Shown in pieces: positions 6,681 to 56,931 of a DNA stretch of 64,000 nt. Source of the stretch: Pirellulales bacterium (GTDB lineage Bacteria; Planctomycetota; Planctomycetia; Pirellulales; Lacipirellulaceae); NCBI GenBank assembly GCA_022841705.1, contig JALHQZ010000005.1, positions 33,223-97,222 of the forward strand. The letters are read 5' to 3'. Each line of letters begins with the position of its first letter. The first letter of the stretch is position 1. Below the pieces are notes generated by a model. The model did no database searches, was not told where the DNA came from, and was given only the letters and a program-made list of their open reading frames with translations. A program made the translations under genes and the position numbers.

Positions 6681-6756
6681 CTTTTGTACGATGGGCTCCT
6701 AGCCCGTCGCGAATTGAGTACCCGCCGCCCGACGGGCTGAAAGCCCATCGTATAAA

Positions 6757-9491: not shown

Positions 9492-9517
9492 CGACCGGGA
9501 CGGACTTCCTGTCTCTC

Positions 9518-9596
9518 GGGTGCCACTGTCCGGGTTGTCCGGCAGTGGACAACGGGTACACGCTTCCCACTGCCGGACAAGCCGGACAGTGGCACG
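9518..9596. promoter_or_regulatory. two tandem 26-bp palindromes CCACTGYCCGG-N5-CCGGRCAGTGG
   Basis: 9523-9548 is CCACTGTCCGGGTTGTCCGGCAGTGG and 9567-9592 is CCACTGCCGGACAAGCCGGACAGTGG. They lie 27-105 bp upstream of the DUF11 lipoprotein start at 9491 on the minus strand. Confidence 0.8.
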
Positions 9597-9913
9597 CAAG
9601 CGCGCAGCACCGCTAGTCTGGGGAACTCTACCGCCTGGGCAGGGTGGATGAGGCGAAATCGCCACATTCTGGGGTGACTTTTCGCCTCATTCAGACCGGT
9701 CGGGCGGGTTATCCGGATTTGACGGGCGGATCAACGACTTGCGTCGATGGAGAGAGGTCCGATTTCGCCTAACCGCGCTGGTTTTCTTGCTTTACCCAGG
9801 CTGCCCGATTACGATCAGGAATATCCGAGCGCTGCTCGGCTGAACCATTGAGGGTCGATCCTGCGCATTGTGATCGACCTCAGCACACCTGCTGCAACAC
9901 GCGACAACTCCCC

Positions 9914-12768: not shown

Positions 12769-12788
12769 CTGTATTTCAGAAAAGATGG

Positions 12789-12958
12789 GGGACGCGGATT
12801 AACACGGATGCAGCGGATTAACGCGGATAACAAAAAGGGGAACGCTTATCTACACTAATTCCCACTAATCTGATTAGCGATGATTAGTGGAGATTAGTGT
12901 TCTTCTTTTCTCTCTATTCATCCGCGCGTATCCGCTGCATCCGCGCTCATCCGCGTCC
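12789..12958. repeat. ~170-bp intergenic element: imperfect ~42-bp inverted repeats built from GCGGAT(T) sub-repeats, flanking an AT-rich core containing CTAATC/GATTAG palindromes
   Basis: The left arm is GGACGCGGATTAACACGGATGCAGCGGATTAACGCGGAT. The right arm reverse-complements to GGACGCGGATGAGCGCGGATGCAGCGGATACGCGCGGAT. It lies between the rpiB stop (12973) and the glycerate kinase start (12768). Confidence 0.8.
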
Positions 12959-12972
12959 ACTATCTTCGTTTT

Positions 12973-14605: not shown

Positions 14606-15805
14606 ATGGCGGATGATACCCGCGTGCTGTTTGAAGTGGAGTACCGCGCGGGGGCGCCGATCGACGAGCGCTCGCTCGAAAAGTCCGGCCCGCGGGAAAA
14701 GATCTTCTTCGAGCCGGCCAAAACTAAAGCCGCCATTGTTACCTGCGGCGGGCTTTGTCCCGGCATCAACAACGTCATTCGCAATTTGTACTACACGCTC
14801 AAGGCGAATTACGGCGTGCAGTCGGTCATCGGCATTCGCAACGGGTACGAAGGGCTCAACCCGGCGCAGGGCGAGGCGCCCTGCGAACTGACCGATAGCA
14901 TGGTCGAGCACATTCACCATCGCGGCGGGACGGTGCTGGGCACGTCGCGCGGGCCGCAGGACCCGGTGGTGACGGTGAACTTTCTGGAATCGATGGGCGT
15001 GGACATCTTGTTCACCATCGGCGGCGATGGCACGCAGCGCGGCGCCCACGCGATTGCCGCGGAAGTGACCCGCCGCGGCGCCAAAATCGCGGTGGTCGGA
15101 ATCCCCAAGACCATCGATAACGACATCAAGTTCTGCTACCAAACCTTCGGCTTTCTCACCGCGGTGGCGGAAGCGGAGAAGGTGATCGATCGCGCGCACA
15201 TTGAGGCGACCAGCATGGAAAATGGCGTGGGGCTGGTGAAACTGATGGGGCGTGAAGCGGGCTTCATTGCGGCAGCCGCCACCATCGCCAGCGGTGAAGT
15301 GAACTTTACCCTGATCCCTGAAGCGCCGTTTGAGCTGGCTGGACCACGCGGGTTCTTGCCGAAACTTGCGCATCGACTGCGCGAGCGCAAGCACGCAGTA
15401 GTGGTGGTGGCCGAAGGCGCCGGGCAAGAGCATTTGGCTGACGGACAGGAGGAGTATGACGCCTCGGGCAATCGCAAGCTCGACGACATTGGGCCGTTCC
15501 TCAAGGGGAAGATCGAAGCCTATTGCCGCGAGGTTTCACTGCCAGTGGGCGTGAAATACTTCGACCCCAGCTATTTCATTCGTAGCGCCCATGCCGACGC
15601 GGCCGACAGTTTGCTGACCGAGCAACTTTCGCGGCACGCCGTCCACGCGGCGATGGCGGGGAAGACCGATATGTTCGTCGGCCTGTGGCACAACCACACG
15701 GTTCACGTTCCGCTGGCGCTCAACACCGGCGAGAAGAAACGCTTAGAGACCGACCGCGACATGTGGGCGGCGGTGCTGGCGATTACGGGGCAGGAGGATT
15801 GGTAG
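14606..15805 (+). CDS. pfkA: 6-phosphofructokinase (ATP- or PPi-dependent PFK family)
   Basis: Start trimmed to MADDTRV. It has CGGLCPGINNVIRN, FTIGGDGTQRGA, GIPKTIDNDI and MGREAGFIA. Confidence 0.85.
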   Translation: MADDTRVLFEVEYRAGAPIDERSLEKSGPREKIFFEPAKTKAAIVTCGGLCPGINNVIRNLYYTLKANYGVQSVIGIRNGYEGLNPAQGEAPCELTDSMVEHIHHRGGTVLGTSRGPQDPVVTVNFLESMGVDILFTIGGDGTQRGAHAIAAEVTRRGAKIAVVGIPKTIDNDIKFCYQTFGFLTAVAEAEKVIDRAHIEATSMENGVGLVKLMGREAGFIAAAATIASGEVNFTLIPEAPFELAGPRGFLPKLAHRLRERKHAVVVVAEGAGQEHLADGQEEYDASGNRKLDDIGPFLKGKIEAYCREVSLPVGVKYFDPSYFIRSAHADAADSLLTEQLSRHAVHAAMAGKTDMFVGLWHNHTVHVPLALNTGEKKRLETDRDMWAAVLAITGQEDW

Positions 15806-16376
15806 AAGCAGGGGCTAGGGGCTGGGGGCTGGGGGCTAGGGAAAGGTTCACGATCGGCAAGCCCTGCGTGCGGAGTTCTTCTACCGCATTCGCAACGCCC
15901 AGGGGGTCGCGCGGGTCGAGTTGTTTCACCAGCGCGACCACTTCGTTCGCCTTGTCCGGTTGGCCGAGTTTTTCTAAGCACCAGGCGAGGCCCTGGGCGG
16001 CGGCGAAGAAGGGGGTGTTGGCGGGGTGATCGCCCGGCAAGGGGCCGCGGCATTCGGCGCGGCGGATCGCCTTCTCGCCCAGTTGGTACGCATAGCCGAA
16101 GTGGCCGCGAGCCAAGGGAATATCCTGCGAGAGTTCAAGCGCCAGTTCGCCGAGCAGGTTGTGCGCTTCGAGAAAGTCGCTGCAATCGGCCAAGAGCCAG
16201 CGGAGCTCATCGACCGCGATTTCGCCTTCGCCGGCGGCGATCATGGCGCGGACTTCTTCGAGGTCTTCGGCCATTTCCCGCACCGCCTTGGGGTGCGTGA
16301 AGACCCACGCCGACCCGCTGGCATTGCGATGCACCTGCACACTATTGGGTGACGACTTGGCGGGGCGTTTGGGCAT
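15783..16376 (-). CDS. hypothetical protein
   Basis: 197 aa helical-looking ORF convergent with pfkA, with a low-complexity P/A-rich tail. The antisense ORF 16026-16352 looks less protein-like. Confidence 0.4.
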   Translation of the reverse strand: MPKRPAKSSPNSVQVHRNASGSAWVFTHPKAVREMAEDLEEVRAMIAAGEGEIAVDELRWLLADCSDFLEAHNLLGELALELSQDIPLARGHFGYAYQLGEKAIRRAECRGPLPGDHPANTPFFAAAQGLAWCLEKLGQPDKANEVVALVKQLDPRDPLGVANAVEELRTQGLPIVNLSLAPSPQPLAPASTNPPAP

Positions 16377-16381
16377 TGATT

Positions 16382-17242
16382 CTACGAGACCAATTCCTTA
16401 CCAAGCGCGTAGACCTCGGCGGCGTCGAGCAGGGCGTCGTTCCTGGTGAAAAGCTCTTGGATCGCGCGTTTGTGAAGTTTCATCTTCAGGCCGCCCACCG
16501 CTAGGGCGCCGTAGCAAGCGCAGCCGTGGAGCAGCACGCCTTTGTCGAACGAGCCCACGCCGCCGATGCCCACCGGCGGCGCAGCGTTCAAATCAATCGC
16601 CACTTGCGGCCCAACAGCCGACGAACAAGCGGCGGCGAGCACTTCCATCGGCAGCACTTCCACGCCTGCCGGTCCCGCCGCGAAGACCGACTGCACGCCG
16701 TCGAGTAGTTTCGCGAGTTCACTGTGGCCCGACGACCAGCCACTCACGAGGTTCGCATCGATCTCCGCCCCCACCTTGGCCGCTTTTGCCGGTGAACGCG
16801 AAGCCAGCCGCACATCCACCCCTTCGGCCGCCAGCAGCTTTGCGACGCGCCGGCCAACGGGCCCCGTACCGATGATCGCCGCCGTGGCGCCGTTCCACGT
16901 CACATGCTTCCCCGCCGTAAGTACGGCCGCGGCCGCCGTAGTGTTGGCGCCATTGGGATCGAGCAGCACCGAGTTGCGAATCGGCCCGAAGAAGGCCTTG
17001 GGCACTTCGCGAAATAACGCCTCCGCCGCGGTGATGTCCGACCCGCCAATAAAGATCGCCGTGTGCGCAAGCTCCTTTGGCCCCCGCGTGAACATCGCCC
17101 CGTGCACCAGCCCCTGCACATCGGCCGGCGTTACGCCACCGTGCCGGAGCAGATGATCGGCCCCCGCATCAATCGCCACCACCGCGTCGAAGACGCTGGG
17201 CTGCGGATCGGCGTCGAGACAGAGGAGGATTTTCGCGGGCAT
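16382..17242 (-). CDS. mtdA: NAD(P)-dependent methylene-tetrahydromethanopterin/methylene-H4F dehydrogenase
   Basis: Start trimmed to MPAKILLCLD. It has long collinear similarity to Methylobacterium MtdA (FDAVVAIDAGADH, FIGGSD, FFGPIRNSVLLDPNGANTTAAAAV, IIGTGPVGRRVAKLLAAEG, GIGGVGSFDKG, GGLKMKLHK). Confidence 0.85.
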   Translation of the reverse strand: MPAKILLCLDADPQPSVFDAVVAIDAGADHLLRHGGVTPADVQGLVHGAMFTRGPKELAHTAIFIGGSDITAAEALFREVPKAFFGPIRNSVLLDPNGANTTAAAAVLTAGKHVTWNGATAAIIGTGPVGRRVAKLLAAEGVDVRLASRSPAKAAKVGAEIDANLVSGWSSGHSELAKLLDGVQSVFAAGPAGVEVLPMEVLAAACSSAVGPQVAIDLNAAPPVGIGGVGSFDKGVLLHGCACYGALAVGGLKMKLHKRAIQELFTRNDALLDAAEVYALGKELVS

Positions 17243-17371
17243 GGGAGGGGAGTGAGTCGTGAGTGGTGATTCGTGCATCGGCCAAGTGATAAAAAAACGC
17301 GGCGCGGCGAAAACTAGCCACGCCGCGTTCAAAGCCCTTATCTGGCCGACAGCCGATCGCCGACAGCCACT

Positions 17372-18012: not shown

Positions 18013-18098
18013 ATCAGCCGCCGGGCGCTAGCCCCCGGTCGTTCAGATTGAGTTGACCAGTGTTTTGCACGACCGGGGGCTAGCGCCCGGCGGCTGAT
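18013..18098. repeat. REP-like 86-bp hairpin element, family A copy 1 (ATCAGCCGCC...GCTAGC...loop...GCTAGC...GGCGGCTGAT)
   Basis: ~30-bp perfectly complementary arms and a ~27-nt loop, in the divergent region between fae and the DUF1559 gene. Confidence 0.85.
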
Positions 18099-22342: not shown

Positions 22343-23380
22343 ATGAAATACTTGGTCACCGGTCCCGGTGGTTTTCTGGGGCGTTACATCGTCGAACAAC
22401 TAATCGCCCGCGGTGATGCGGTGCGCGGGCTCGCGCGCGGGAACTATCCGGAGCTGGCGGCGTTAGGGGTTGAACTGGTGCGGGGTGATCTCGCGGATCG
22501 CAAGACCGTCATGGCGGCTTGTGAAGGCATCGACTGCGTCTTCCATGTCGCGGGCCGGGTTGGAGTGTGGGGGAAGTGGAACGACTACGTGCGCGATAAC
22601 GTGCGCGGGACGCTCAACCTCCTCGCGGGTTGCCAGCAACAAGGCGTCGAGCGGATGGTGTTTACTTCCAGCCCGAGCGTCACCTTCACCGGCGAGGATC
22701 AGTGCAACGTCGCTGAGTCGGCGCCGTACGCCACTAAGTGGCTGGCGCACTATCCGCACTCGAAGGCGCTCGCCGAGCAGTTCGTGCTGGCGATGAATGG
22801 CGAAGAGGTTCATGGCGGCGGCGTATTCCGCTGCTGCTCGCTCCGGCCGCACTTGGTGTGGGGGCCGAGGGATCATCACCTCACCGCGCGGCTGGTGCAG
22901 CGGGCGAAGTCGGGCCAACTGCGGCGCGTCGGCGAGGGGAAAAACTTGGTGGACATGATCTACGTCGAGAACGCGGCGACCGCGCACCTGCAAGCGGCCG
23001 ATGCGCTCGCCGTCGCGCCCTACGCGCCGGCAGGTAAGGCGTACTTCATCAGCCAAGGCGCCCCGGTGAACTGCTGGCAATGGATCGACGAGATTCTCGC
23101 CCTGGTCAACCTGCCGCCGGTCACCAAAAGCATCTCGGCCTCGAGCGCTTACCGGGTCGGCGCCGCCTTGGAGTGGGCCCACCGGCTGACCCGCAACCGC
23201 ACCGAACCCCGGATGACCCGCTTCGTCGCCCGGCAACTGGCGACCAGCCATTATTTCAACATCGCCGCCGCGAAGCGCGATTTCGGGTATGAACCCAAGG
23301 TCCCAACGGCCGAGGGGATGCGGCGGTTGGGTGAATGGCTGAATTCAAATGCGGAAGGCGGAATGCGGAATGCGGAATAA
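22343..23380 (+). CDS. NAD(P)-dependent 3beta-hydroxysteroid dehydrogenase/isomerase-family reductase (OleD-like)
   Basis: MKYLVTGPGGFLGRYIV (Rossmann fold) and a YxxxK-type SDR-extended fold. It follows the acyl-AMP ligase 10 bp downstream. The C-terminal 10 codons are encoded by a GCGGAAT tandem repeat. Confidence 0.7.
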   Translation: MKYLVTGPGGFLGRYIVEQLIARGDAVRGLARGNYPELAALGVELVRGDLADRKTVMAACEGIDCVFHVAGRVGVWGKWNDYVRDNVRGTLNLLAGCQQQGVERMVFTSSPSVTFTGEDQCNVAESAPYATKWLAHYPHSKALAEQFVLAMNGEEVHGGGVFRCCSLRPHLVWGPRDHHLTARLVQRAKSGQLRRVGEGKNLVDMIYVENAATAHLQAADALAVAPYAPAGKAYFISQGAPVNCWQWIDEILALVNLPPVTKSISASSAYRVGAALEWAHRLTRNRTEPRMTRFVARQLATSHYFNIAAAKRDFGYEPKVPTAEGMRRLGEWLNSNAEGGMRNAE

Positions 23381-23537
23381 GATCAGCGAGCCGGCTCATC
23401 TTCTCGATTGTGAGGGGCGCAAGTACAATCCTGGATTCGGTTTACGCCGAAACACGGCGGCCCCACTCAGGATTACTGGCGGCCGGCTAGCAACGCAATT
23501 CCGCATTCCGCATTCCGCACTCCGACATCCGCATTCG
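23349..23537. repeat. ~190-bp intergenic element: (GCGGAAT)n tandem heptamers at the left end and (ATTCCGC)n at the right end, flanking a ~115-bp core
   Basis: The left arm is AATGCGGAAGGCGGAATGCGGAATGCGGAAT, which also encodes the last 10 aa of the upstream reductase. The right arm is ATTCCGCATTCCGCATTCCGCACTCCGACATCCGCATTC and ends 2 bp before the aspS ATG. Confidence 0.8.
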
Positions 23538-23539
23538 CT

Positions 23540-25312
23540 ATGCTTCGCACTCATACTTGTGGTGAACTTCGCTCTTCGCACGCTGGTGGCGTGGTCACGT
23601 TATGCGGGTGGGTCGATAGCTACCGCGACCACGGCGGCGGGCTGTTCGTCGACCTGCGCGACCGCTACGGCATCACCCAAGTGGTCTTCAACCCGCCCGA
23701 CTCGTCGGCGGAACTAATCGAGCAATCGAAGCAACTCCGGGCCGAGTACGTGATTCAGGTCACCGGCAACGTCGCCCTGCGGCCCGAGGGGATGGCGAAC
23801 CCGCGGCTTTCCAGCGGCGAGATTGAACTGCGGGCCACGAGCCTCAAGCTGCTGAACAAATCGCTCACGCCACCGGTCTCGCCGAGTGAAAGCATCACCG
23901 AACTGCCGAGCGAAGAGTTGCGGCTGAAGTACCGCTATCTCGACCTGCGACGGCAGAAGATGCAGAAGGCGCTGCTCTTGCGCGACAAGCTCATTAAGCT
24001 GATGCGGGACTACTTCGCCGAGCTCGATTTTATTGATGTCGAAACGCCGATCCTTGGCCGTAGCACGCCGGAAGGCGCCCGCGATTACTTGGTGCCGAGC
24101 CGCGTCCACCATGGGCACTTCTACGCGCTGCCTCAATCGCCACAGCTCTACAAACAGATTTTGATGATGGCGGGCTACGACCGCTACGTGCAGGTGGCCC
24201 GCTGCTTCCGCGACGAGGACCTGCGGGCGGACCGCCAACCGGAGTTCACGCAGCTCGACGTCGAGATGGCGTTCATCGACCACGAAGACATTATGGGCAT
24301 CATCGATGGGCTAGTGGTTAAACTTGCGAAGGAAGTTCACAACCTTGACGTCAAGTTACCGCTGCCGCGGATGACGTACGACGAAGCGATGCGCCGCTTT
24401 GGCCACGATGCGCCCGACCTGCGGTTCGGGCTCGAGATCGTCGACTGCACCGACCTCGCCGCGAAGAGCGAGTTCCGCGTCTTTCAAACGGTGGCCCAAA
24501 GCGGCGGCTTCGTCCGGGCGATCAACGTCAAGAAAGGGACCGACACCTACAGCCGCCGCGGGATTGATAGCCTCACGGAGTTCGTCGCCAACTACGGCGC
24601 CAAGGGCCTCGCGTGGTTCCGCTGCGAAGAGGACGGTACGCTTGGCAGCACCATCGCCAAAAACTTCACACCCGAAACACTGAAGGAATTCGCCACGCGG
24701 CTGAACGCCGAACCGGGCGACCTAATTCTGTTCTCCGCCGACAAGTGGCCCGTCACCTGCAAAGTGCTGCACGCGCTGCGCACGAAAATCGGCGCCGAGA
24801 TGAAACTGTACGACCCGGCCGCGATGAATTTTTCGTGGATCGTAGAGTTCCCCATGTTCGAGCACGACGCGGAAGAAGGCCGGTGGGTCGCCATGCACCA
24901 TCCCTTCACGGCGCCTCTCGATGAGCACCTGCAGTACCTCGACACCGACCCCGGCCGTTGCCGGGCAAAGGCGTACGACCTAGTGATCAACGGCTACGAA
25001 GCGGGCGGCGGCACCATCCGGATTCACGACAATGTGGTGCAATCAAAAGTCTTTGGCCTGTTGGGTCTCTCTGCCGAGGTGGCCAAAGACCGCTTCGGTT
25101 TTCTGCTCGACGCGTTGCAGTACGGCGCCCCCCCGCACGGCGGCATCGCGCTCGGCATCGACCGCGTGGTGATGCTCTTCGGCGGCCTCGACAACATCCG
25201 CGACGTGATCGCCTTCCCCAAAACCCAGAAAGCAACCGACCTGATGACCGAAGCCCCCGGCACGGTCGACGCGAAGCAGTTGCGCGAGCTGGGCGTTAAA
25301 GTGGTGGAGTAA
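23540..25312 (+). CDS. aspS: aspartate--tRNA ligase
   Basis: 590 aa with an OB anticodon-binding domain, class II motifs (FRDEDLRADRQPEFTQLD, GGGTIRIH, GIALGIDR) and the GAD insertion domain. Confidence 0.9.
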   Translation: MLRTHTCGELRSSHAGGVVTLCGWVDSYRDHGGGLFVDLRDRYGITQVVFNPPDSSAELIEQSKQLRAEYVIQVTGNVALRPEGMANPRLSSGEIELRATSLKLLNKSLTPPVSPSESITELPSEELRLKYRYLDLRRQKMQKALLLRDKLIKLMRDYFAELDFIDVETPILGRSTPEGARDYLVPSRVHHGHFYALPQSPQLYKQILMMAGYDRYVQVARCFRDEDLRADRQPEFTQLDVEMAFIDHEDIMGIIDGLVVKLAKEVHNLDVKLPLPRMTYDEAMRRFGHDAPDLRFGLEIVDCTDLAAKSEFRVFQTVAQSGGFVRAINVKKGTDTYSRRGIDSLTEFVANYGAKGLAWFRCEEDGTLGSTIAKNFTPETLKEFATRLNAEPGDLILFSADKWPVTCKVLHALRTKIGAEMKLYDPAAMNFSWIVEFPMFEHDAEEGRWVAMHHPFTAPLDEHLQYLDTDPGRCRAKAYDLVINGYEAGGGTIRIHDNVVQSKVFGLLGLSAEVAKDRFGFLLDALQYGAPPHGGIALGIDRVVMLFGGLDNIRDVIAFPKTQKATDLMTEAPGTVDAKQLRELGVKVVE

Positions 25313-33473: not shown

Positions 33474-33581
33474 GTTTATGCCGCCGAGCGGGCTGTTTCA
33501 GCTACATTTCGTCGGCCAACCGCAATTCTTGGCGAAAATCGCCGGGCCGATTAGTTCGAGAAGGAGGGTTGTGCCGCCATT

Positions 33582-33662
33582 GTAGCAGGCACGGTCCCCG
33601 TGCCGTTGCCCCGAGTTGGAGTCTACCCTCGCAGAAACGGCACGGGGACCGTGCCTGCTACT
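33582..33662. promoter_or_regulatory. 81-nt hairpin with a perfect 26-bp stem (GTAGCAGGCACGGTCCCCGTGCCGTT / AACGGCACGGGGACCGTGCCTGCTAC) and a 29-nt loop
   Basis: Each arm contains the internal palindrome GGCACGG-N3-CCGTGCC. It lies in the divergent region between nfeD (start 33473, minus strand) and the 33741 plus-strand gene. Confidence 0.8.
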
Positions 33663-33740
33663 TTGGGCCGCATTGACGCCAACCGCCATGGCCGGGAAAC
33701 TAAGGGGCGAATCGGACTCGCGTTCCCACGGAAGTTTCCC

Positions 33741-36866: not shown

Positions 36867-36952
36867 ATCAGCCGCCACGCTCTAGCGTCCGGTCGTTCAG
36901 AATGCGGCGCAAATCACTACCAGCGACCGGACGCTAGCGCGTGGCGGCTGAT
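36867..36952. repeat. REP-like hairpin element, family A copy 2
   Basis: It shares the termini ATCAGCCGCC/GGCGGCTGAT and the central GCTAGC with copy 1. The arms carry compensatory substitutions that preserve pairing. It starts 5 bp after the fabF stop. Confidence 0.85.
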
Positions 36953-38689: not shown

Positions 38690-38856
38690 GCGAATGTTTC
38701 ACGTGAAACATTCGCTTTTTCATGCGCCGACTTGAAAAATGTTTCACGTGAAACAATTTGGTCACTCCGCTTCCTGACGGGCGCGGCTCGAAAAAATGTT
38801 TCACGTGAAACAATTTCCCCCTGAGGCCCGCCGTGAATTGTTTCACGTGAAACATT
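38690..38856. promoter_or_regulatory. array of four perfect palindromes sharing the core AATGTTTCACGTGAAACA (copy 1 is a 26-bp perfect palindrome GCGAATGTTTCACGTGAAACATTCGC)
   Basis: Copies lie at 38690-38715, 38738-38758, 38795-38815 and 38836-38856, with centre-to-centre spacing 45, 57 and 42 bp. The region is AT-rich in a GC-rich genome and lies 170-330 bp upstream of the ELWxxDGT giant gene. Confidence 0.85.
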
Positions 38857-38863
38857 CCAAACG

Positions 38864-38916
38864 GGGGGTGGCCACAATTTGGGCTTGACAGGGGGTGGCT
38901 ACAATTTGGGGTTGAC
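38864..38916. repeat. tandem 26-27-bp direct repeat GGGGGTGGCYACAATTTGGGSTTGAC x2
   Basis: The copies are 38864-38889 and 38891-38916. Each contains a TTGAC hexamer. The repeat is immediately downstream of the palindrome array and ~105 bp upstream of the 39023 start. Confidence 0.8.
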
Positions 38917-39022
38917 GGGGCTTTTCCGCGGGCGAATGTTTGCCGCCAACGCGGCCGGCGGGTAGACTCAGAAGCTGTGCCTTCTTGACCGCCCGGCGCC
39001 TCCTTTCTCGCCTGCCAGCTCG

Positions 39023-42000
39023 ATGCCCTCTCGCGATCACCACCACCGGAAGCTGCGCTTTGAGACGCTGGAATCCCGCGCGATGTTAGCGGGGGATTTG
39101 GAGTTGGTGAAGGATATTAACCCCAGTCCAACCGGCACAAGTAGTTCGCCGAGTAACCTGGTCGATGTGAGTGGGGTGCTCTTCTTCGTCGTCAATGATG
39201 GGGCCAACGGCGAAGAGTTGTGGAAGAGCGACGGCACCGAAGCCGGCACTGTGATGGTGAAGGACATTTTCCTGGGCGGACCTTCATCGCCGCGGTATTT
39301 GACTAATGTTGGTGGCATCTTGTACTTTTCCGCTAACGACGGAGTGCATGGGAGTGAACTTTGGAAGAGCGATGGCACGGAAGCCGGGACGGTGATGGTG
39401 AAGGACGTGCGCCCCGGTTTCGTAGGTTCCGGCCCGAGCCAACTAATCAATCTTGCAGGGCAACTCGTTTTCGCCGCCAGCGATGGAAGCGTTGGTCAAG
39501 AGTTATGGCGCTCGGACGGCAGCGAGACTGGTACAGTTCTCGTTCGCGATATTCGTGAAGGCTCATCAAGCAGTAATCCGCGTTATTTTGGTGAGTCGGG
39601 AGGCATCGTCTATTTTCGTGCGAACGATGGTCTAACTGGCGAAGAGCTTTGGAGAAGCGATGGAACTAGCGCTGGCACTGGGCTGGTGAAGGATATTCGC
39701 ACCGGCTCGGCAAGCTCCGATCCCCGGCGATTCACGAGTCATCAAGGTGAAGTCTTTTTTGTCGCGAATGATGGGATGACTGGCGCTGAGCTTTGGAGAA
39801 CCGATGGCACGGCTTCAGGAACGATGCTGGTTCGAGATGTGTTCGTTGGGTCTGGCGGCGCAGACATCACGAGTTTGGCTTCAGTAGGAACCACGTTGTT
39901 TTTTGCGGCTCGCGGGAACGGAACTGCTGGCAAAGAACTTTGGAAAACGGATGGCACTTCGACAGGGACTGTGCTCGTTAAAGACATCCAAAGTTTAGGA
40001 TCTTCGTATCCTTCATCTCTGACGAATGTCTCTGGGGTGTTGTTTTTTCGAGCGACTGATAGCTTCGGAGACGCAGGACTCTGGAAAAGCGACGGCACTG
40101 AGTTGGGAACGCAAATTCTCACTCGCACAGATGCAAGCGCGTTCTTGAACTTCGCAGGTACTCTTTACTTCCGAGGCAATGGCGGTCAAGAAATCTGGAA
40201 ATCTGACGGGACAGTAGCAGGAACAATCATTGTCAAAGCGAACGATGCGAGCTACTTCACAACGGCGCCTCAACCTCTGGTAGCGGTAGGTAGTGCGATA
40301 TTCTTCCGTGCCCACGATGATAGTCATGGAGCAGAACTATGGACCAGCGATACCTCAAATGAGGGAACTAAACTGGTGCGAGATATTCGCACGGCGGGAG
40401 GCTCGGTAGGGACGGGCGTCGGTGACGCAAGTGTTCTCGATGGAGTAGTTTACTTTTTTGCAAATGATGGAGTTTCGGGCGGATTGTGGAGCAGTAATGG
40501 TTTCGAGGCAAACACTCTGAAAATTTCCCCTCCGGGAGTAACGGGCATCGGTGAAATCGAGGTCGCCGGCTCGGTGCTCTATTTTGTGGCGACTGTAGGC
40601 CAAGATTCCCAGTTATGGAAATCGGATGGCACCACTGCAGGCACTGTACTTGTCAAGGACATGACCCCCAGTTTCCGTCCGTCTTCAATCGGCGAGCTAA
40701 CAAACGTCGAAGGTGTGCTCTACTTCACGGCCACTGACGAAGTATCTGGGTACGAATTATGGAAGAGCGATGGTACGACCACCGGTACGGTCCGCGTTCG
40801 GGACATCAATCCAGGATCAGCAGGTTCGTCGCCCCGATACCTCACGAACGTCAACGGAACGTTGTACTTCACAGCGAACAATGGCGTAACCGGCAGTGAG
40901 TTGTGGAGAAGTGATGGAACAGAGGCGGGAACTGCGCTCGTGAAGGAGATCGTTCCTGGCGCCAATGTTTTTGGACCAGCGTGGCTGACGAATCTCGGCG
41001 ATGTGCTTTATTTTGTCGCGAATGATGGGACGAGCGGAACTGAGCTGTGGAAAAGCGATGGGACATCGGCAGGGACCAATATCGTGGTCGATATTCGCCC
41101 GGGGACACAGAGCGCTGTCCCCCAGTTCTTGACTGCTTCGGACCAAGGGCTTTTCTTCTCAGCTGATAATGGCTCACTAGGAGAAGAATTGTGGATCACG
41201 GATGGCACGGCCGTCGGGACACGGATGGTCAAAGATTTAACTCCCGGATTCGGCCGGGGGTTCTTGGGAGGATTGCAAAAAATCGGCAACTTCGTCGTCT
41301 TCCGAGGCCGTGATGGCTCAACGGGAGTTGAATTGTGGAAAAGCGATGGGACGGAAGTTGGAACCACTCTCGTCAAGGATATCTGGCAAGGCCCAGGAAG
41401 CTCGCTCAGCGAATCAGTCGGCATCATCAACGGCATTCCAAGTGACTTGACGCATTATGTAATGGCTAATGAACAGCTCTATTTTCGGGCGAGGAGTAGC
41501 GCGACCGGCACAGAGTTGTGGACCAGTGATGGCACCGAAACAGGCACGGTGATTGTAAGGGATTTGGTCGCGGGCTCTGGCGGCTCATACCCAACGGGAC
41601 TCTTCGCTGCTGGGGACCGACTGTTTCTTGCTGCGCTCACGCCAGAGATCGGATCTGAACTCTACTCCCTCACCACCATCACCCCGCCGGCCCTCCCCGG
41701 CGATTACACCCGCAACAACATCGTCGATCAAGCGGACTACGATCTCTGGCGTTCGACCTTTGGATCGGCAGTGAATCTGGCGGCGGATGGGAATGATGAT
41801 GGCATCATCGATGCCGCGGATTACACCGTGTGGCGAGACGCGCTACCGGCGCCGATTGCGGTGGCGACGACGGCCGTTAGTGCAATCGCCCCGCAGCCGA
41901 TTGCACCGTCGCCGGAGCGGCGGGTGGCGGTGAAGACGGCGCCGACCGAAGCGCTCCCCCCGCTGACGCGAGGGGCTCATGAACGGAATTATGACGCGGC

Positions 42001-42157
42001 GCGGGAGGCGGTGTTTGCGGAGCTGGGTGAGGCGGAAACGGTGGCGCCGTCGCGGATGAGTGCGAATCCGAACAATAGCCGGGGAGCTACGCTCCGCGGA
42101 GCGCGGCTGTTGCTAAAACCGCACATTTCTCTGGAAACCGCACTCCGCGGAGCGTAG
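39023..42157 (+). CDS. giant secreted ELWxxDGT-repeat protein with a planctomycete N-terminal motif and C-terminal dockerin-like repeats
   Basis: 1044 aa. The N-terminus RKLRFETLESRAMLAG is a planctomycete secretion-associated motif. About 17 tandem ~50-aa units of G.ELWKSDGTEAGT..VKDI.PG..SS.P..LTNV.G.LYF.A.DG follow (ELWxxDGT repeat, beta-propeller-like). The C-terminus carries two dockerin-like EF-hand repeats (NNIVDQADYDLWRSTFG, DGNDDGIIDAADYTVWRDAL). Confidence 0.8.
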   Translation: MPSRDHHHRKLRFETLESRAMLAGDLELVKDINPSPTGTSSSPSNLVDVSGVLFFVVNDGANGEELWKSDGTEAGTVMVKDIFLGGPSSPRYLTNVGGILYFSANDGVHGSELWKSDGTEAGTVMVKDVRPGFVGSGPSQLINLAGQLVFAASDGSVGQELWRSDGSETGTVLVRDIREGSSSSNPRYFGESGGIVYFRANDGLTGEELWRSDGTSAGTGLVKDIRTGSASSDPRRFTSHQGEVFFVANDGMTGAELWRTDGTASGTMLVRDVFVGSGGADITSLASVGTTLFFAARGNGTAGKELWKTDGTSTGTVLVKDIQSLGSSYPSSLTNVSGVLFFRATDSFGDAGLWKSDGTELGTQILTRTDASAFLNFAGTLYFRGNGGQEIWKSDGTVAGTIIVKANDASYFTTAPQPLVAVGSAIFFRAHDDSHGAELWTSDTSNEGTKLVRDIRTAGGSVGTGVGDASVLDGVVYFFANDGVSGGLWSSNGFEANTLKISPPGVTGIGEIEVAGSVLYFVATVGQDSQLWKSDGTTAGTVLVKDMTPSFRPSSIGELTNVEGVLYFTATDEVSGYELWKSDGTTTGTVRVRDINPGSAGSSPRYLTNVNGTLYFTANNGVTGSELWRSDGTEAGTALVKEIVPGANVFGPAWLTNLGDVLYFVANDGTSGTELWKSDGTSAGTNIVVDIRPGTQSAVPQFLTASDQGLFFSADNGSLGEELWITDGTAVGTRMVKDLTPGFGRGFLGGLQKIGNFVVFRGRDGSTGVELWKSDGTEVGTTLVKDIWQGPGSSLSESVGIINGIPSDLTHYVMANEQLYFRARSSATGTELWTSDGTETGTVIVRDLVAGSGGSYPTGLFAAGDRLFLAALTPEIGSELYSLTTITPPALPGDYTRNNIVDQADYDLWRSTFGSAVNLAADGNDDGIIDAADYTVWRDALPAPIAVATTAVSAIAPQPIAPSPERRVAVKTAPTEALPPLTRGAHERNYDAAREAVFAELGEAETVAPSRMSANPNNSRGATLRGARLLLKPHISLETALRGA

Positions 42158-42257
42158 CTCCCCGGCTATTTGGCTCATCGCTAGCTTCTTGAGCGCTCTC
42201 GCCGCATTCCGGCAGTTCTTGCTAGAATGGGGGTCTTGCCTCGGAGGGCCTCGCACG

Positions 42258-42434: not shown

Positions 42435-42562
42435 ACGGGGGTGGAAAGGTCGAAGGGTGAAAAGGTGGAAAGGTATTCTACGGTAACGTCCTGCCTTCAC
42501 GATTCCCCGTCTGCTATCGCCACCTTTCTACCTTTCGACTCTTCCACCTTTTGACCTCTTTC

Positions 42563-44023: not shown

Positions 44024-44119
44024 GTAGGATGGGTTATCCGCGCCAGCGGTAACCCATCGGACGCCAGAGTCGATCTCACCGCGTGATGGGTTACCGCCAA
44101 AGCGGATGACCCCTCCTAC
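44024..44119. repeat. ~100-bp nested palindromic element, family B copy 1 (GTAGGATGGGTTATCCGCG...CGGTAACCCAT...ATGGGTTACCG...GCGGATGACCCCTCCTAC)
   Basis: It lies between the miaB stop (44002) and the DUF4832 gene start (44195). Confidence 0.85.
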
Positions 44120-49000: not shown

Positions 49001-49226
49001 ATTCTTTCGCCAAGCGTACCGCTTCCAGCGCAGCGTCGAAGCGCGCATCCGCCTGATGAACGCCGCCGGCCGGCATGAATTTCCGAGCGACCCCGCGGAA
49101 CTGGCGAAGCTGGCGTACCTGCTGCGCGGGATTGACCCGACGCTGCTGCAGACCGAGGCGCTCGAGATCTTTGCGGAGACGCGGGAGCGGTTTGAGCGAT
49201 TGTTCGCCGCAGCGGCGGAAAGCTAA
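46059..49226 (+). CDS. glnE: bifunctional glutamine synthetase adenylyltransferase/adenylyl-removing enzyme
   Basis: 1055 aa with two GlnE nucleotidyltransferase repeats (GKLGGIELNYSSDIDLVLLYD and GKLGGREPNYHSDLDLIFLYE), each followed by GlnE-C helical domains (VDLRLRPEG / VDMRLRPAG). Confidence 0.9.
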   Translation: MELDLLKRYLDEPTVATPWLQTLRLTKTKSGHDNLRRIAEAGVSLDLVDTLCEQFKAAAPTLADADMAWNNLERFIVAARSPLATVALFERDRSALPNLLSLFASSQYLSDLLVRDQECYDLLRMTEGRPVARDVLVEEITGEVLVHHDINQASRTLRRCKRRETLRIAYGDIVRGQVVSTVARQISFLADALIEAALAFLRRQLVARYGEPRDAKGDPVRYCVLALGKLGGIELNYSSDIDLVLLYDHDGQTSGPRPIENREFFDRLSRELVKLLSEQTEFGAVYRVDLRLRPEGTRGPLCPNLEQMIAYYDVKGRTWERQAYVKARAVAGDISLGDELLRRLEPWVYRRYLSLADITGIKSLKARIEHRTLLEEGGERNVKNGPGGIRDIEFVIQFLQLLNGGTLPEVRTGNTLEAVERLAKAGCLTHQEATLLSDNYSFLRKVEHRLQIMFDLQTHTLPAEPDELRKLAVRMGYVGTPHRLPLDMFRGELRERTETNRKMLDHLLSDAFGGDPTAEPEVDLVNDPSPSFERIEEVLGKYQFEDAQNAYDNLMELATERIRFLSTRRCRHFLASIAPRLLTAISRTPDPDGTLVSLCRVSDSLGGKAALWELFSSSQASLQFYVKLCAACPYLSSILTSNPGMIDELMDSLLVENLPTLAMLETSLAELVRGAEDLSPILLSFKSAQHLRVGVRDIVGKDDIRDTHAALSDIAECCLKAIIEREYQWLVDKFGEPTIGEMPEPTAENMAYRSRFAERVGERSELVVLALGKLGGREPNYHSDLDLIFLYEAEGQTFHRKRGKTSGLTTTNGHFFSELGQRIIKVANQIGPLGRLYEVDMRLRPAGKSSPLAAPIDSLARYFASGRGQLWERQTLCKARVIFGAHRAAAYAMHTVVEAAYGPAWKPEMAREIREMRARLEESATPANLKRGPGGAVDTEFLVQMLQLKHGHENPAVRVPGTLDALTALEEHNYLSSGDAQFFRQAYRFQRSVEARIRLMNAAGRHEFPSDPAELAKLAYLLRGIDPTLLQTEALEIFAETRERFERLFAAAAES

Positions 49227-49239
49227 TCCCTTAAGAAAA

Positions 49240-49408
49240 GAAGCTTAACCACAGAGAAGACACAGAGAAAGGAAAAAGAGAAGGAAGGAAAAATTGGCAG
49301 ATGCCTATTCTACCGTTCGATCGCTGGTAAGTTGGAAAGAAACTGCCCAAGGAGACCATCCCTCTCTTTCCCTCTGTCCGTCCTCCGTGATCTCTGTGGT
49401 TAAGCTTC
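49240..49408. repeat. ~170-bp intergenic purine-rich element with an 18-bp perfect terminal inverted repeat (GAAGCTTAACCACAGAGA) extended by degenerate AG-rich/CT-rich arms
   Basis: It lies between the glnE stop (49226) and the bamA start (49537) in a low-GC patch. Confidence 0.8.
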
Positions 49409-49536
49409 TCTTTGGTCATTATCGCCGGTAAGTGCTAGCACCTCACGGCGGCTTCTCTTGTAACTTTCACCCGCTTCCGCTAAATCTCTCCCCGCTTGCG
49501 GGTGCGCGGATTTTGTGCGCCGGCTTGCCGACCTTG

Positions 49537-55478: not shown

Positions 55479-55689
55479 GGCAATCGGGAAATGGGACAGC
55501 TAGCAGTGGAAACTCGGGCAGAGTGGGTGGGCCGGGGGGCCGGTTGTAGGGGTGGCCGGGGTCGGCGCGTCAGCCGCCCCCAGCCGGGGTGGAATGGCCC
55601 CTTGCGAATTCACGGTCACGAACCCGTTGCAGGGGACGCTCAGTCGGCACGGCTGAGGGCGGCGAAAGCGCCGACCCCAGCCACCCACC

Positions 55690-56845: not shown

Positions 56846-56931
56846 GGTTTTCGTAAGTGGCACGCGACCGAAGTCCCGTGCGCAAAATTGTGCTCGCACG
56901 GGACTTCGGTCCCGTGCTACAAACGACTTCA

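Follow-up and report, generated by a model that had tools for sequence, protein, structure and literature searches.

The short tandemly repeated repetitive (STRR) sequences of cyanobacteria (Anabaena, Nostoc, Lyngbya) consist of 7-bp tandem units that lie in intergenic regions between co-directional genes and are capable of forming hairpins, and STRR families reuse a few fixed units genome-wide. A junction of similar build was characterized here in a Pirellulales bacterium of the phylum Planctomycetota (family Lacipirellulaceae; assembly GCA_022841705.1, contig JALHQZ010000005.1, positions 33,223 to 97,222 of the forward strand), the whole analysed stretch of 64,000 nucleotides being referred to as the window. 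The element found at positions 23348-23536 is the complete junction between a gene of the 3beta-HSD family and aspS, which encodes the aspartyl-tRNA synthetase (AspRS), and it is built as a hairpin with inverted heptamer arms. Among known kinds of element, the STRR heptamer hairpins of cyanobacteria come closest to it, and it shares with them the heptamer, the intergenic location, and the hairpin. However, the fixed genome-wide unit of STRR is absent, and nearly each locus of the class to which the element belongs has a unit of its own (32 unit classes among 42 pairs of inverted arrays). Furthermore, the host does not belong to the heterocystous or filamentous cyanobacteria, the arms of the element flank a promoter-like box, and one of them is translated, whereas the rule by which the purine-rich arm comes first and the pyrimidine-rich arm second, described below for the class, was not found stated in the STRR literature examined. 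For the 7-bp STRR hairpins placed between hupS and hupL, roles in transcript stability or translational coupling have been proposed (PMC2670836). Both for STRR and for the element presented here, function is an inferred proposal rather than an established fact, and Planctomycetota offers a second phylum, with cultured strains such as Aeoliella and Botrimarina, in which this question of about 30 years can be addressed.

Jackman and Mulligan are said to have noticed, in 1995, that nif intergenic regions were variable in sequence yet structured. In Anabaena, nif transcripts are stabilised by stem-loops found at processing sites (PMC4284476). In the 5′ untranslated region (UTR) of Haemophilus influenzae hmw, an (ATCTTTC)n arm and a G-rich partner form a long hairpin that is an RNase III substrate and controls expression (PMC12721329). 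In both cases, a tandem heptamer array in a 5′ UTR pairs with a G-rich sequence to make up a long hairpin; in contrast to the present element, only one hmw arm is repetitive, the pyrimidine repeat is placed 5′ and the G-rich arm 3′, and the system is phase-variable in a pathogen (PMC12721329). Marine Beggiatoaceae harbor direct TAACTGA heptamers a few nucleotides before start codons devoid of a canonical ribosome-binding site, and a role in translation was proposed for them (PMC4679880). These short arrays resemble those described here in their unit length, in their proximity to start codons, and in the lack of a canonical ribosome-binding site, but they use one fixed genome-wide unit and are direct repeats, with one indirect repeat among 170 sets (PMC4679880). 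The palindromes known as REP and BIME, and the miniature inverted-repeat transposable elements (MITEs; Correia, ERIC), are also intergenic, hairpin-forming, and often co-transcribed, and roles in mRNA stabilisation or termination have been proposed for them. However, they constitute near-identical multi-copy families, some of which are mobilised by transposases, whereas the hairpins considered here have locus-specific tandem-array arms and no shared core. In classical translational coupling, a long-range stem keeps the ribosome-binding region of a downstream gene masked, and translation of the upstream cistron unmasks it. The present architecture is similar in that the 5′ arm is found at the end of the upstream open reading frame (ORF), or within that end, and the 3′ arm spans the region where translation of the next gene is initiated, but it differs in its probable internal promoter and in its repetitive arms, which pair in several registers, and coupling at this site is a proposal. 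A full-text literature search, limited to one library, retrieved no description of such arrays in Planctomycetes. As a class, these hairpins are well delimited and seem not to have been described before, and the individual element is an ordinary member. The distinctive traits are units that are specific to the locus within an architecture that is conserved, a polarity that follows a clear rule, a loop that contains a promoter-like box, and an arm absorbed into a reading frame.

The heptamer-armed junction upstream of aspS

Tandem Repeats Finder (TRF) delimited two period-7 arrays on the forward strand at the junction. The 5′ arm, at 23348-23378, comprises 4.4 copies of AATGCGG with 91% matches and is rich in purines and in G (G/C content 13/4), while the 3′ arm, at 23498-23536, comprises 5.6 copies of ATTCCGC and is pyrimidine-rich and G-poor (G/C content 5/17). 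An inverted-repeat search revealed that the best pairing joined 23348-23378 to 23505-23535, over 31 nt that were 90% complementary and 126 nt apart. Since both arms are tandem, pairing is also available in registers shifted by 7 nt, such as 27 nt at 93% complementarity (119 nt apart) and 22 nt at 95%. The two-unit probe GCGGAATGCGGAAT, with up to 2 mismatches allowed, matched the window 8 times, relative to 1.03 +/- 1.10 matches in shuffles, none of which reached 8 in 100 trials, and 6 of the 8 matches fell inside the two arrays. When 23340-23545 was folded as a single RNA, which presupposes the co-transcription of both arms, a free energy of -100 kcal/mol was obtained (z -7.1; 0/200 shuffles as good), with a predicted outer stem of 21 contiguous pairs plus extensions. 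Inner stems of the minimum-free-energy fold include the one between GCGAGCCGGC (23386-23395) and GCCGGCTAGC (23482-23491), both on the forward strand and also recovered as an inverted repeat. The original prediction, made from the sequence of the window, had described inverted heptamer arrays shared by the two genes, whose ends could pair into a stem of about 30 bp. Both the arrays and the pairing were confirmed, the stem enclosing a core of about 120 nt, and the proximity of the right array to aspS was borne out with a gap of 3 nt by the TRF delimitation, in which GCT follows the 3′ arm and precedes the ATG at 23540.

The upstream ORF of the 3beta-HSD/NAD-epimerase family (22343-23380, forward strand) was identified by the Pfam domain 3Beta_HSD (1.5e-55, residues 4-248), with an additional match to Epimerase. 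Its C-terminus reads ...NSNAEGGMRNAE*, and its TAA stop codon, at 23378-23380, is placed within the last unit of the 5′ arm, in such a way that the last ~11 codons (NAEGGMRNAE*) are encoded by the arm, the overlap comprising the last 30 nt of the gene. It was observed that orthologues outside the clade in which the arrays occur mostly stop 2-6 residues past the ...RLGEWL motif, whereas the proteins of the clade carry a repeat-encoded extension of 8-12 residues, (A/V/G)EGGxR(N/K)(A/G)E. The proposed comparison with orthologues, meant to reveal whether the tail is a product of the repeat, therefore came out in favor of it: most orthologues lack the repeat-encoded tail, and in those that bear one it is the same repeats that encode it. 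The upstream reading frame has taken in the 5′ arm, as a clade-specific tail of 8-12 codons. Downstream, aspS (23540-25312, forward strand; Pfam tRNA-synt_2/GAD/OB) starts with ATG.

The HSD-family gene is itself preceded, in many relatives, by a pyrimidine-rich heptamer array ending 0-4 nt from its start codon, with a different unit in each genome (loci L002 at 8826, L022 at 8824, L029 at 8747, L033 at 8771, L044 at 8841, L058 at 8865, and L059 at 8797). In the window, this gene starts 10 nt past the preceding stop codon, and no array is found there.

Inheritance of the arms and the promoter-like core

The genomes nearest to that of the window belong to Aeoliella, Botrimarina, and metagenome-assembled genomes of Lacipirellulaceae, with AspRS identities of 75-82%. 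In an AspRS tree, the array-bearing aspS loci formed a single clade, composed of the window, L006, L018, L021, L027, L029, L033, L051, and the decayed L002 and L047. L006 belongs to the cultured strain Aeoliella straminimaris ICT_H6.2. Judging from this tree, the pair of arms has been passed down within a single clade of Lacipirellulaceae (Aeoliella, Botrimarina). Arm complementarity was scored between the 45 nt following the conserved ...EWL motif and the 45 nt preceding the ATG, and z-scores of -8.3 to -2.2 were obtained in 7 of the 10 clade members (window -8.3, L029 -5.8, L033 -5.6, L018 -4.4, L006 -3.5, L027 -2.8, L021 -2.2), in comparison with -2.2 to +1.3 in 22 outside orthologues; the remaining members scored -1.3 (L051), +0.3 (L002), and +1.5 (L047). 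The unit depended on the lineage, being GCGGAAT:ATTCCGC in the window, L033, and L006, GCGGAAG:CTTCCGC in L029 and L018, and TGATT:AATCA in L027, and it changed in both arms together. In an alignment of seven sequences, 76.7% of the cells paired in register, versus 30-52% when the partner was slid by 1-3 columns. Eight double-sided pair changes were counted, a number matched by 8 of 500 shuffles, and the covariation score was 0.131 versus 0.070 (2/500 shuffles). Since only seven related sequences were compared, this support for covariation is moderate rather than strong. The energies of cognate versus non-cognate arm duplexes across species were uninformative, with L027 alone being distinct, because most units are near variants of GCGGAAN. 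A search for close relatives in which copy number could vary, carried out on contigs and by a metagenome scan, recovered only an identical 3-kb contig, and the next nearest relative had an AspRS identity of 82%.

The comparison of aspS upstream regions across 79 Pirellulales loci revealed a TAnAAT hexamer within 200 nt of the aspS start in 72 of them, in the forms TACAAT, TAGAAT, or TAAAAT, position 3 alone being variable. When these 72 contexts were aligned, a second conserved box, CCTAGC (CCTwGC) or CCTTC, was found 18-20 nt upstream of the hexamer, as CCTAGC in Lacipirellulaceae and as CCTTCC or CCTTTG in Pirellulaceae (e.g., L048 9925-9970). In the window, the upstream box is CATCTTCTC at 23397-23405 (CCTTCTC or CCTAGC in relatives), separated by 20 nt from TACAAT at 23424-23429, both on the forward strand. 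The hexamer has the conserved T1, A2, and T6 of a sigma-70-type -10 element, at a fixed distance from the upstream box and kept across species, and the upstream box would be -35-like. Thus, the box in the loop probably represents the aspS promoter, with a putative transcription start near 23436. A generic sigma-70 consensus promoter scan gave no match and did not call TACAAT, the box having emerged from cross-species conservation alone. The upstream box is unlike TTGACA, and it may indicate either a -35 preference of Pirellulales or a regulator site.

The leader that would follow from this start differs between the two groups of loci. Array-less relatives have an aspS leader of ~35-50 nt with GAGGA and a GTG start; all array-bearing loci start with ATG, lack a Shine-Dalgarno sequence, and have a leader of 70-115 nt whose last 30-40 nt correspond to the pyrimidine array. 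In the window, the 3′ arm makes up the G-poor aspS leader directly before the ATG, with no Shine-Dalgarno sequence. When folded from the putative start site, this leader was no more structured than its shuffles (z +1.15), and the array remained unpaired. A different arrangement was found in a metagenome relative (L091, 2849-2953), in which a hairpin of (GGGGAAG)n and (TTCCCCC)n, its loop 12 nt long, is placed wholly between the HSD stop codon and the aspS TAnAAT, thus upstream of the promoter box, and aspS keeps both GAGGA and GTG. This layout may be an alternative or an ancestral arrangement.

Since the promoter-like region is also present in relatives devoid of arrays, the core, measured as 115 nt, is not foreign DNA but the ancestral promoter region. 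This bears on the suggestion that the element is a mobile MITE-like insertion or a free-standing gene for a structured non-coding RNA (ncRNA), as the original prediction had proposed for a family of related elements. Such a view could draw on the layout, reminiscent of terminal inverted repeats around a core, and on the presence of several elements of similar size in one window. However, the cores of the four elements found in the window (12782-12966, 23348-23536, 42440-42560, and 49236-49412) had no sequence in common, no target-site duplication or flanking direct repeat was seen in the flanks of 23348-23536, and the orthologous site is occupied throughout one clade. An Rfam scan of the window returned no match at the gathering score, and a permissive E-value retrieved only a chance-level match (E 3.7) for 23250-23650. 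Insertion or an ncRNA gene is therefore extremely improbable. Integron attC sites, in which structure is likewise kept and sequence variable, were also considered and rejected, the flanking genes being syntenic housekeeping genes and the sequence having no attC-type core sites.

A class of tandem-armed hairpins in Pirellulales

The four window elements share this architecture and use four different units. The one at 12782-12966, on the reverse strand between rpiB and a glycerate-kinase-like gene, both also encoded on that strand, contains nested arrays with outer units of the ACGCGGATTA type and inner units of the CACTAAT type, and folds into one hairpin of ~95 bp (-107.3 kcal/mol, z -12.6). 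Its likeness to the aspS element, proposed earlier for 12789-12958, proved to be real, with arrays of period ~10 at 12792-12828 and 12919-12955 and 47-nt arms that are 83% complementary. The third element, at 42440-42560 on the forward strand, comprises (GGTGGAAA)x4.4 and (CCACCTTT)x4 (-55.7 kcal/mol, z -5.2), begins 5 nt past a stop codon, and ends right before the ATG (42563) of a MiaB-like gene. The fourth, at 49236-49412 on the forward strand, is less regular, with a purine arm of CACAGAGA and GGAA repeats followed by a pyrimidine arm (-68.5 kcal/mol, z -3.85), and starts 10 nt past the stop codon that ends at 49226. Units of the CACAGAG type, comparable to those of this last element, recur at other sites in the relatives L031 and L042.

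A census based on TRF and a reverse-complement test, applied to 80 related loci plus the window (1.43 Mb), identified 35-37 inverted array pairs, and an independent set of metagenome loci (0.44 Mb) added 6 further pairs, resulting in a total of ~40 in 1.9 Mb. A reverse-complement partner within 400 nt was found for 78 of 162 intergenic arrays (48%), while a direct copy was found for 7 and a reversed-only copy for 1. Period 7 was dominant, accounting for 84 of 171 intergenic arrays and 27 of 42 pairs, and spacers were 9-221 nt long (median ~36). The commonest unit class was GCGGATT (7 of 42 pairs), near the units of the 23348-23536 and 12789-12958 elements, which is in line with the anticipated recurrence of GCGGAWT-type units. 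The idea of a related family, in its turn, held only in part: the architecture is common, being also found at 42440-42560 and 49236-49412, but the diversity of units does not correspond to a sequence family of copies. Orthologous sites presented the same picture. Upstream of an apgM-like gene (MKYAIVIPDG...), a hairpin was found in 10 of 14 loci, with units of the ATTGCGG or GTAAGTC type, and upstream of an aspartokinase-like gene the units were AGGATGC, CACAGAGGA, or a triple-nested set. The class is, therefore, abundant in Lacipirellulaceae/Pirellulales, and its units differ at orthologous sites while the architecture is kept.

The 5′ arm was rich in purines and G, and the 3′ arm in pyrimidines and C, in 29 of 35 pairs; the replicate set followed this order in 5 of its 6 pairs. 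This purine-first polarity is the sole one that places pyrimidine-rich sequence before outward-facing starts and purine-rich sequence after inward-facing stops. G was less frequent than C in 36 of 40 arrays located up to 40 nt from a start, and 53 of 61 arrays located up to 40 nt after a stop were purine-rich. Arrays with no detected partner followed the same trend (16 versus 2 close to starts, 28 versus 4 past stops). Shine-Dalgarno-like motifs were found at only 13 of 88 unambiguous starts in this group. CsrA-type GGA sites and Shine-Dalgarno/anti-Shine-Dalgarno mimicry were considered as the origin of the units and dropped, as many units (GTAAGTC, AGATTTA, GGGGCTG, and CACAGAG) have no GGA. 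Two unpaired arrays of the window also obey the polarity rule: a pyrimidine-rich heptamer array at 17252-17275 (sense strand CACGAATCACCACTCACGACTCAC), located 9 nt upstream of a gene start at 17242 on the minus strand, and (AGGGGCT)x4.6 at 15810-15841, directly past the stop at 15805. Among the few arrays without the purine-first polarity are the inverted TAGCTNT (AGCT-containing) arrays of L022 (2212-2298) and L026 (2151-2232), placed directly after a tRNA-like 3′ end (ggttcgaatcc...).

With two gene calls corrected from the sequence, 24 pairs were found between co-directional genes, 5 between divergent genes, and 1 between convergent genes, relative to a background of 72/12/16%. About 5 of these 30 pairs would be expected between convergent genes (p ~0.04 by our own binomial estimate), and the elements therefore associate with gene starts rather than with gene ends. 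Since a simple gene caller mis-set several starts, distances to start codons were taken from the sequence context. The 5′ arm began no more than 6 nt from the upstream stop codon, or overlapped it, in roughly half of the co-directional cases, and in these the 3′ arm ended no more than 14 nt from the start. Adjacency to stop codons, together with the position of the L091 hairpin, past the HSD stop and before the aspS promoter box, and the many other long intergenic hairpins of the window, could suggest a terminator, an insulator, or a REP-like 3′-end stabiliser of the upstream gene, in which a hairpin past the stop codon would halt or protect the transcript. This explanation is nonetheless quite unlikely. 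First, convergent contexts are depleted. Second, no T-run follows the arms, and a consensus scan found no terminator-like site in 23200-23700. Third, the stem of the window element would close only once the polymerase had moved past the aspS promoter and leader, and in short-loop members efficient termination would silence the next gene, because the 3′ arm abuts its ATG.

The position of the promoter-like box, symmetrically flanked by the arms, could also point to a DNA-level regulatory site, either as iteron-like sites bound by a promoter-looping protein or as a supercoiling-sensing cruciform. Arm mismatches are in fact strand-symmetric, as detailed in the next section, and such symmetry would be in agreement with a role on DNA. 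However, a single sequence-specific protein cannot account for the elements, because units within the same genome are unrelated (GGTGGAAA, ACGCGGATTA, and CACAGAGA) and orthologous sites change their unit. In addition, a period of 7 bp puts successive sites on different faces of the helix, and the extrusion of a cruciform with a loop of ~120 bp is kinetically unfavourable. Among the class members checked, TAnAAT was found in the spacer at the aspS site only. All in all, a DNA-level regulatory site is very unlikely. The restriction of TAnAAT to the aspS site also led to the rejection of the idea that every long-spacer element holds a promoter in its loop, the others being nested or extended hairpins.

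A possible role on RNA and the turnover of the arms

The arrays may be made and homogenised by replication slippage. According to the part of Mrazek 2007 that is summarised in PMC4679880, heptamers are a favoured unit of long simple sequence repeats in many bacteria. If a unit and its complement flank a site, the expansion of either array would add pairing potential, and therefore long stems could arise quickly and units could turn over. We infer, with a little less than even confidence, that the resulting hairpins have been retained for a cis-acting role on RNA. This reading is favoured because the arms are complementary across genera at a distance of 119-126 nt, at which cruciforms and template switching are unlikely, because the elements associate with gene starts, and because the 3′ arm corresponds exactly to the initiation region; hmw, the Anabaena nif stem-loops, and the hupS-hupL STRR hairpins provide precedents.

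In such a role, transcripts from the internal promoter would carry the pyrimidine arm alone, as an open G-poor leader suited to initiation in the absence of a Shine-Dalgarno sequence. Read-through transcripts from the HSD gene, on the other hand, would carry both arms, and a duplex of ~30 bp, long enough for cleavage by RNase III, would hide the aspS leader. The translation or stability of aspS in read-through mRNA might then depend either on processing or on the melting of the 5′ arm by the ribosome that finishes the HSD ORF, as a ribosome translating the last 10 HSD codons, which correspond to the 5′ arm, would open the duplex. In short-loop members of the class, the stem would bring the stop codon of the upstream gene and the start codon of the downstream gene to the two sides of its base.

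In the main rival explanation, the arms are a non-adaptive by-product, in which heptamer slippage and template switching (quasi-palindrome correction) make and homogenise inverted arrays, leaving a hairpin of no use. Under this explanation, which we regard as somewhat unlikely, the arrays would spread into freely varying sequence, among it the C-terminus of the upstream ORF, which would be dispensable, and the polarity would reflect the purifying removal of G-rich, structure-prone sequence before start codons. The great diversity of units agrees with such an origin, and so does the fact that the arms reach exactly to the coding limits, here into an unconserved protein tail. The dominance of period 7 fits the mutational preference reported in the summary of Mrazek 2007 given in PMC4679880. 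However, the arms remain complementary 119-126 nt apart across genera with 75-82% AspRS identity while the spacer outside the promoter box has diverged, three orthologous sites retain the architecture while the unit changes, and pairs are depleted between convergent genes. Template switching across 119-126 nt is also expected to be inefficient.

Several observations weigh against the role on RNA. No signature of an RNA strand was found, as arm mismatches on the sense strand were of the G.U type in 24 cases and of the A.C type in 25, and sense and antisense folding energies were alike (Wilcoxon p 0.50); both symmetries are those expected of a by-product. All units change in concert in the two arms, an outcome that homogenisation at the DNA level would produce more readily than many separate point mutations. 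The polarity alone identifies no strand, because it is unchanged by reverse complementation, and the adjacency to stops and starts follows in part, trivially, from the filling of short intergenic gaps by the elements. In three clade members (L002, L047, and L051), the arms have little or no complementarity, which fits a by-product better, and L003, which lies inside the clade, has neither the upstream HSD gene nor the TAnAAT box; the arm pair is therefore dispensable. Finally, if the main aspS transcript starts at the TAnAAT box, it lacks the 5′ arm, and read-through is required for the hairpin at aspS.

A broader version of the role on RNA can be envisaged, although we hold it to be a long shot. 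Lacipirellulaceae would use self-renewing tandem-arm hairpins as a general device for initiation without Shine-Dalgarno sequences, in a prokaryotic counterpart of ribosome shunting. With the upstream stop and the downstream start set on opposite sides of the stem base, the terminating ribosome would melt the first units, free the G-poor landing pad, and re-initiate across the stem, while slippage would rebuild the arms, so that structure is conserved and sequence turns over; at aspS, promoter-initiated transcripts would have an open leader and read-through transcripts a closed one. If the hairpins act on RNA, they would reveal intercistronic control in a high-GC lineage that rarely uses Shine-Dalgarno sequences, as well as a clear case of structure under selection while slippage rewrites the sequence. 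If they are non-adaptive, they still extend reading frames, as in the tail of 8-12 codons, can mislead start-codon calling and the programs that search for ncRNAs or MITEs, and mark a strong polarity rule, purine-rich after stops and pyrimidine-rich before starts, that needs an explanation.

Other repeats and hairpins were observed in the window. Four perfect palindromes of ~20 nt (AATGTTTCACGTGAAACATT), ~40-57 nt apart, are found at 38692-38857, upstream of a forward-strand gene at 39023, and resemble an operator array for a dimeric regulator; they are followed by 2.2 copies of a 27-nt tandem repeat (GGGGGTGGCCACAATTTGGGCTTGAC) at 38864-38920. The hairpins at 18013-18098 and 36867-36952, with arms of 29-33 nt that are 97% complementary, share the arm ATCAGCCGCC...GCTAGC...CGGTCG and represent a REP-like family of repeated palindromes, distinct from the tandem-armed class. 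Non-repetitive intergenic hairpins with arms of 27-43 nt were found at 6683-6756, 9515-9600, 33577-33666, 42074-42170, 44024-44119, 55550-55686, and 56851-56926. Judged by eye from the list of inverted repeats, a large share of the window's intergenic regions harbors a long hairpin, between co-directional, divergent, and convergent genes alike.

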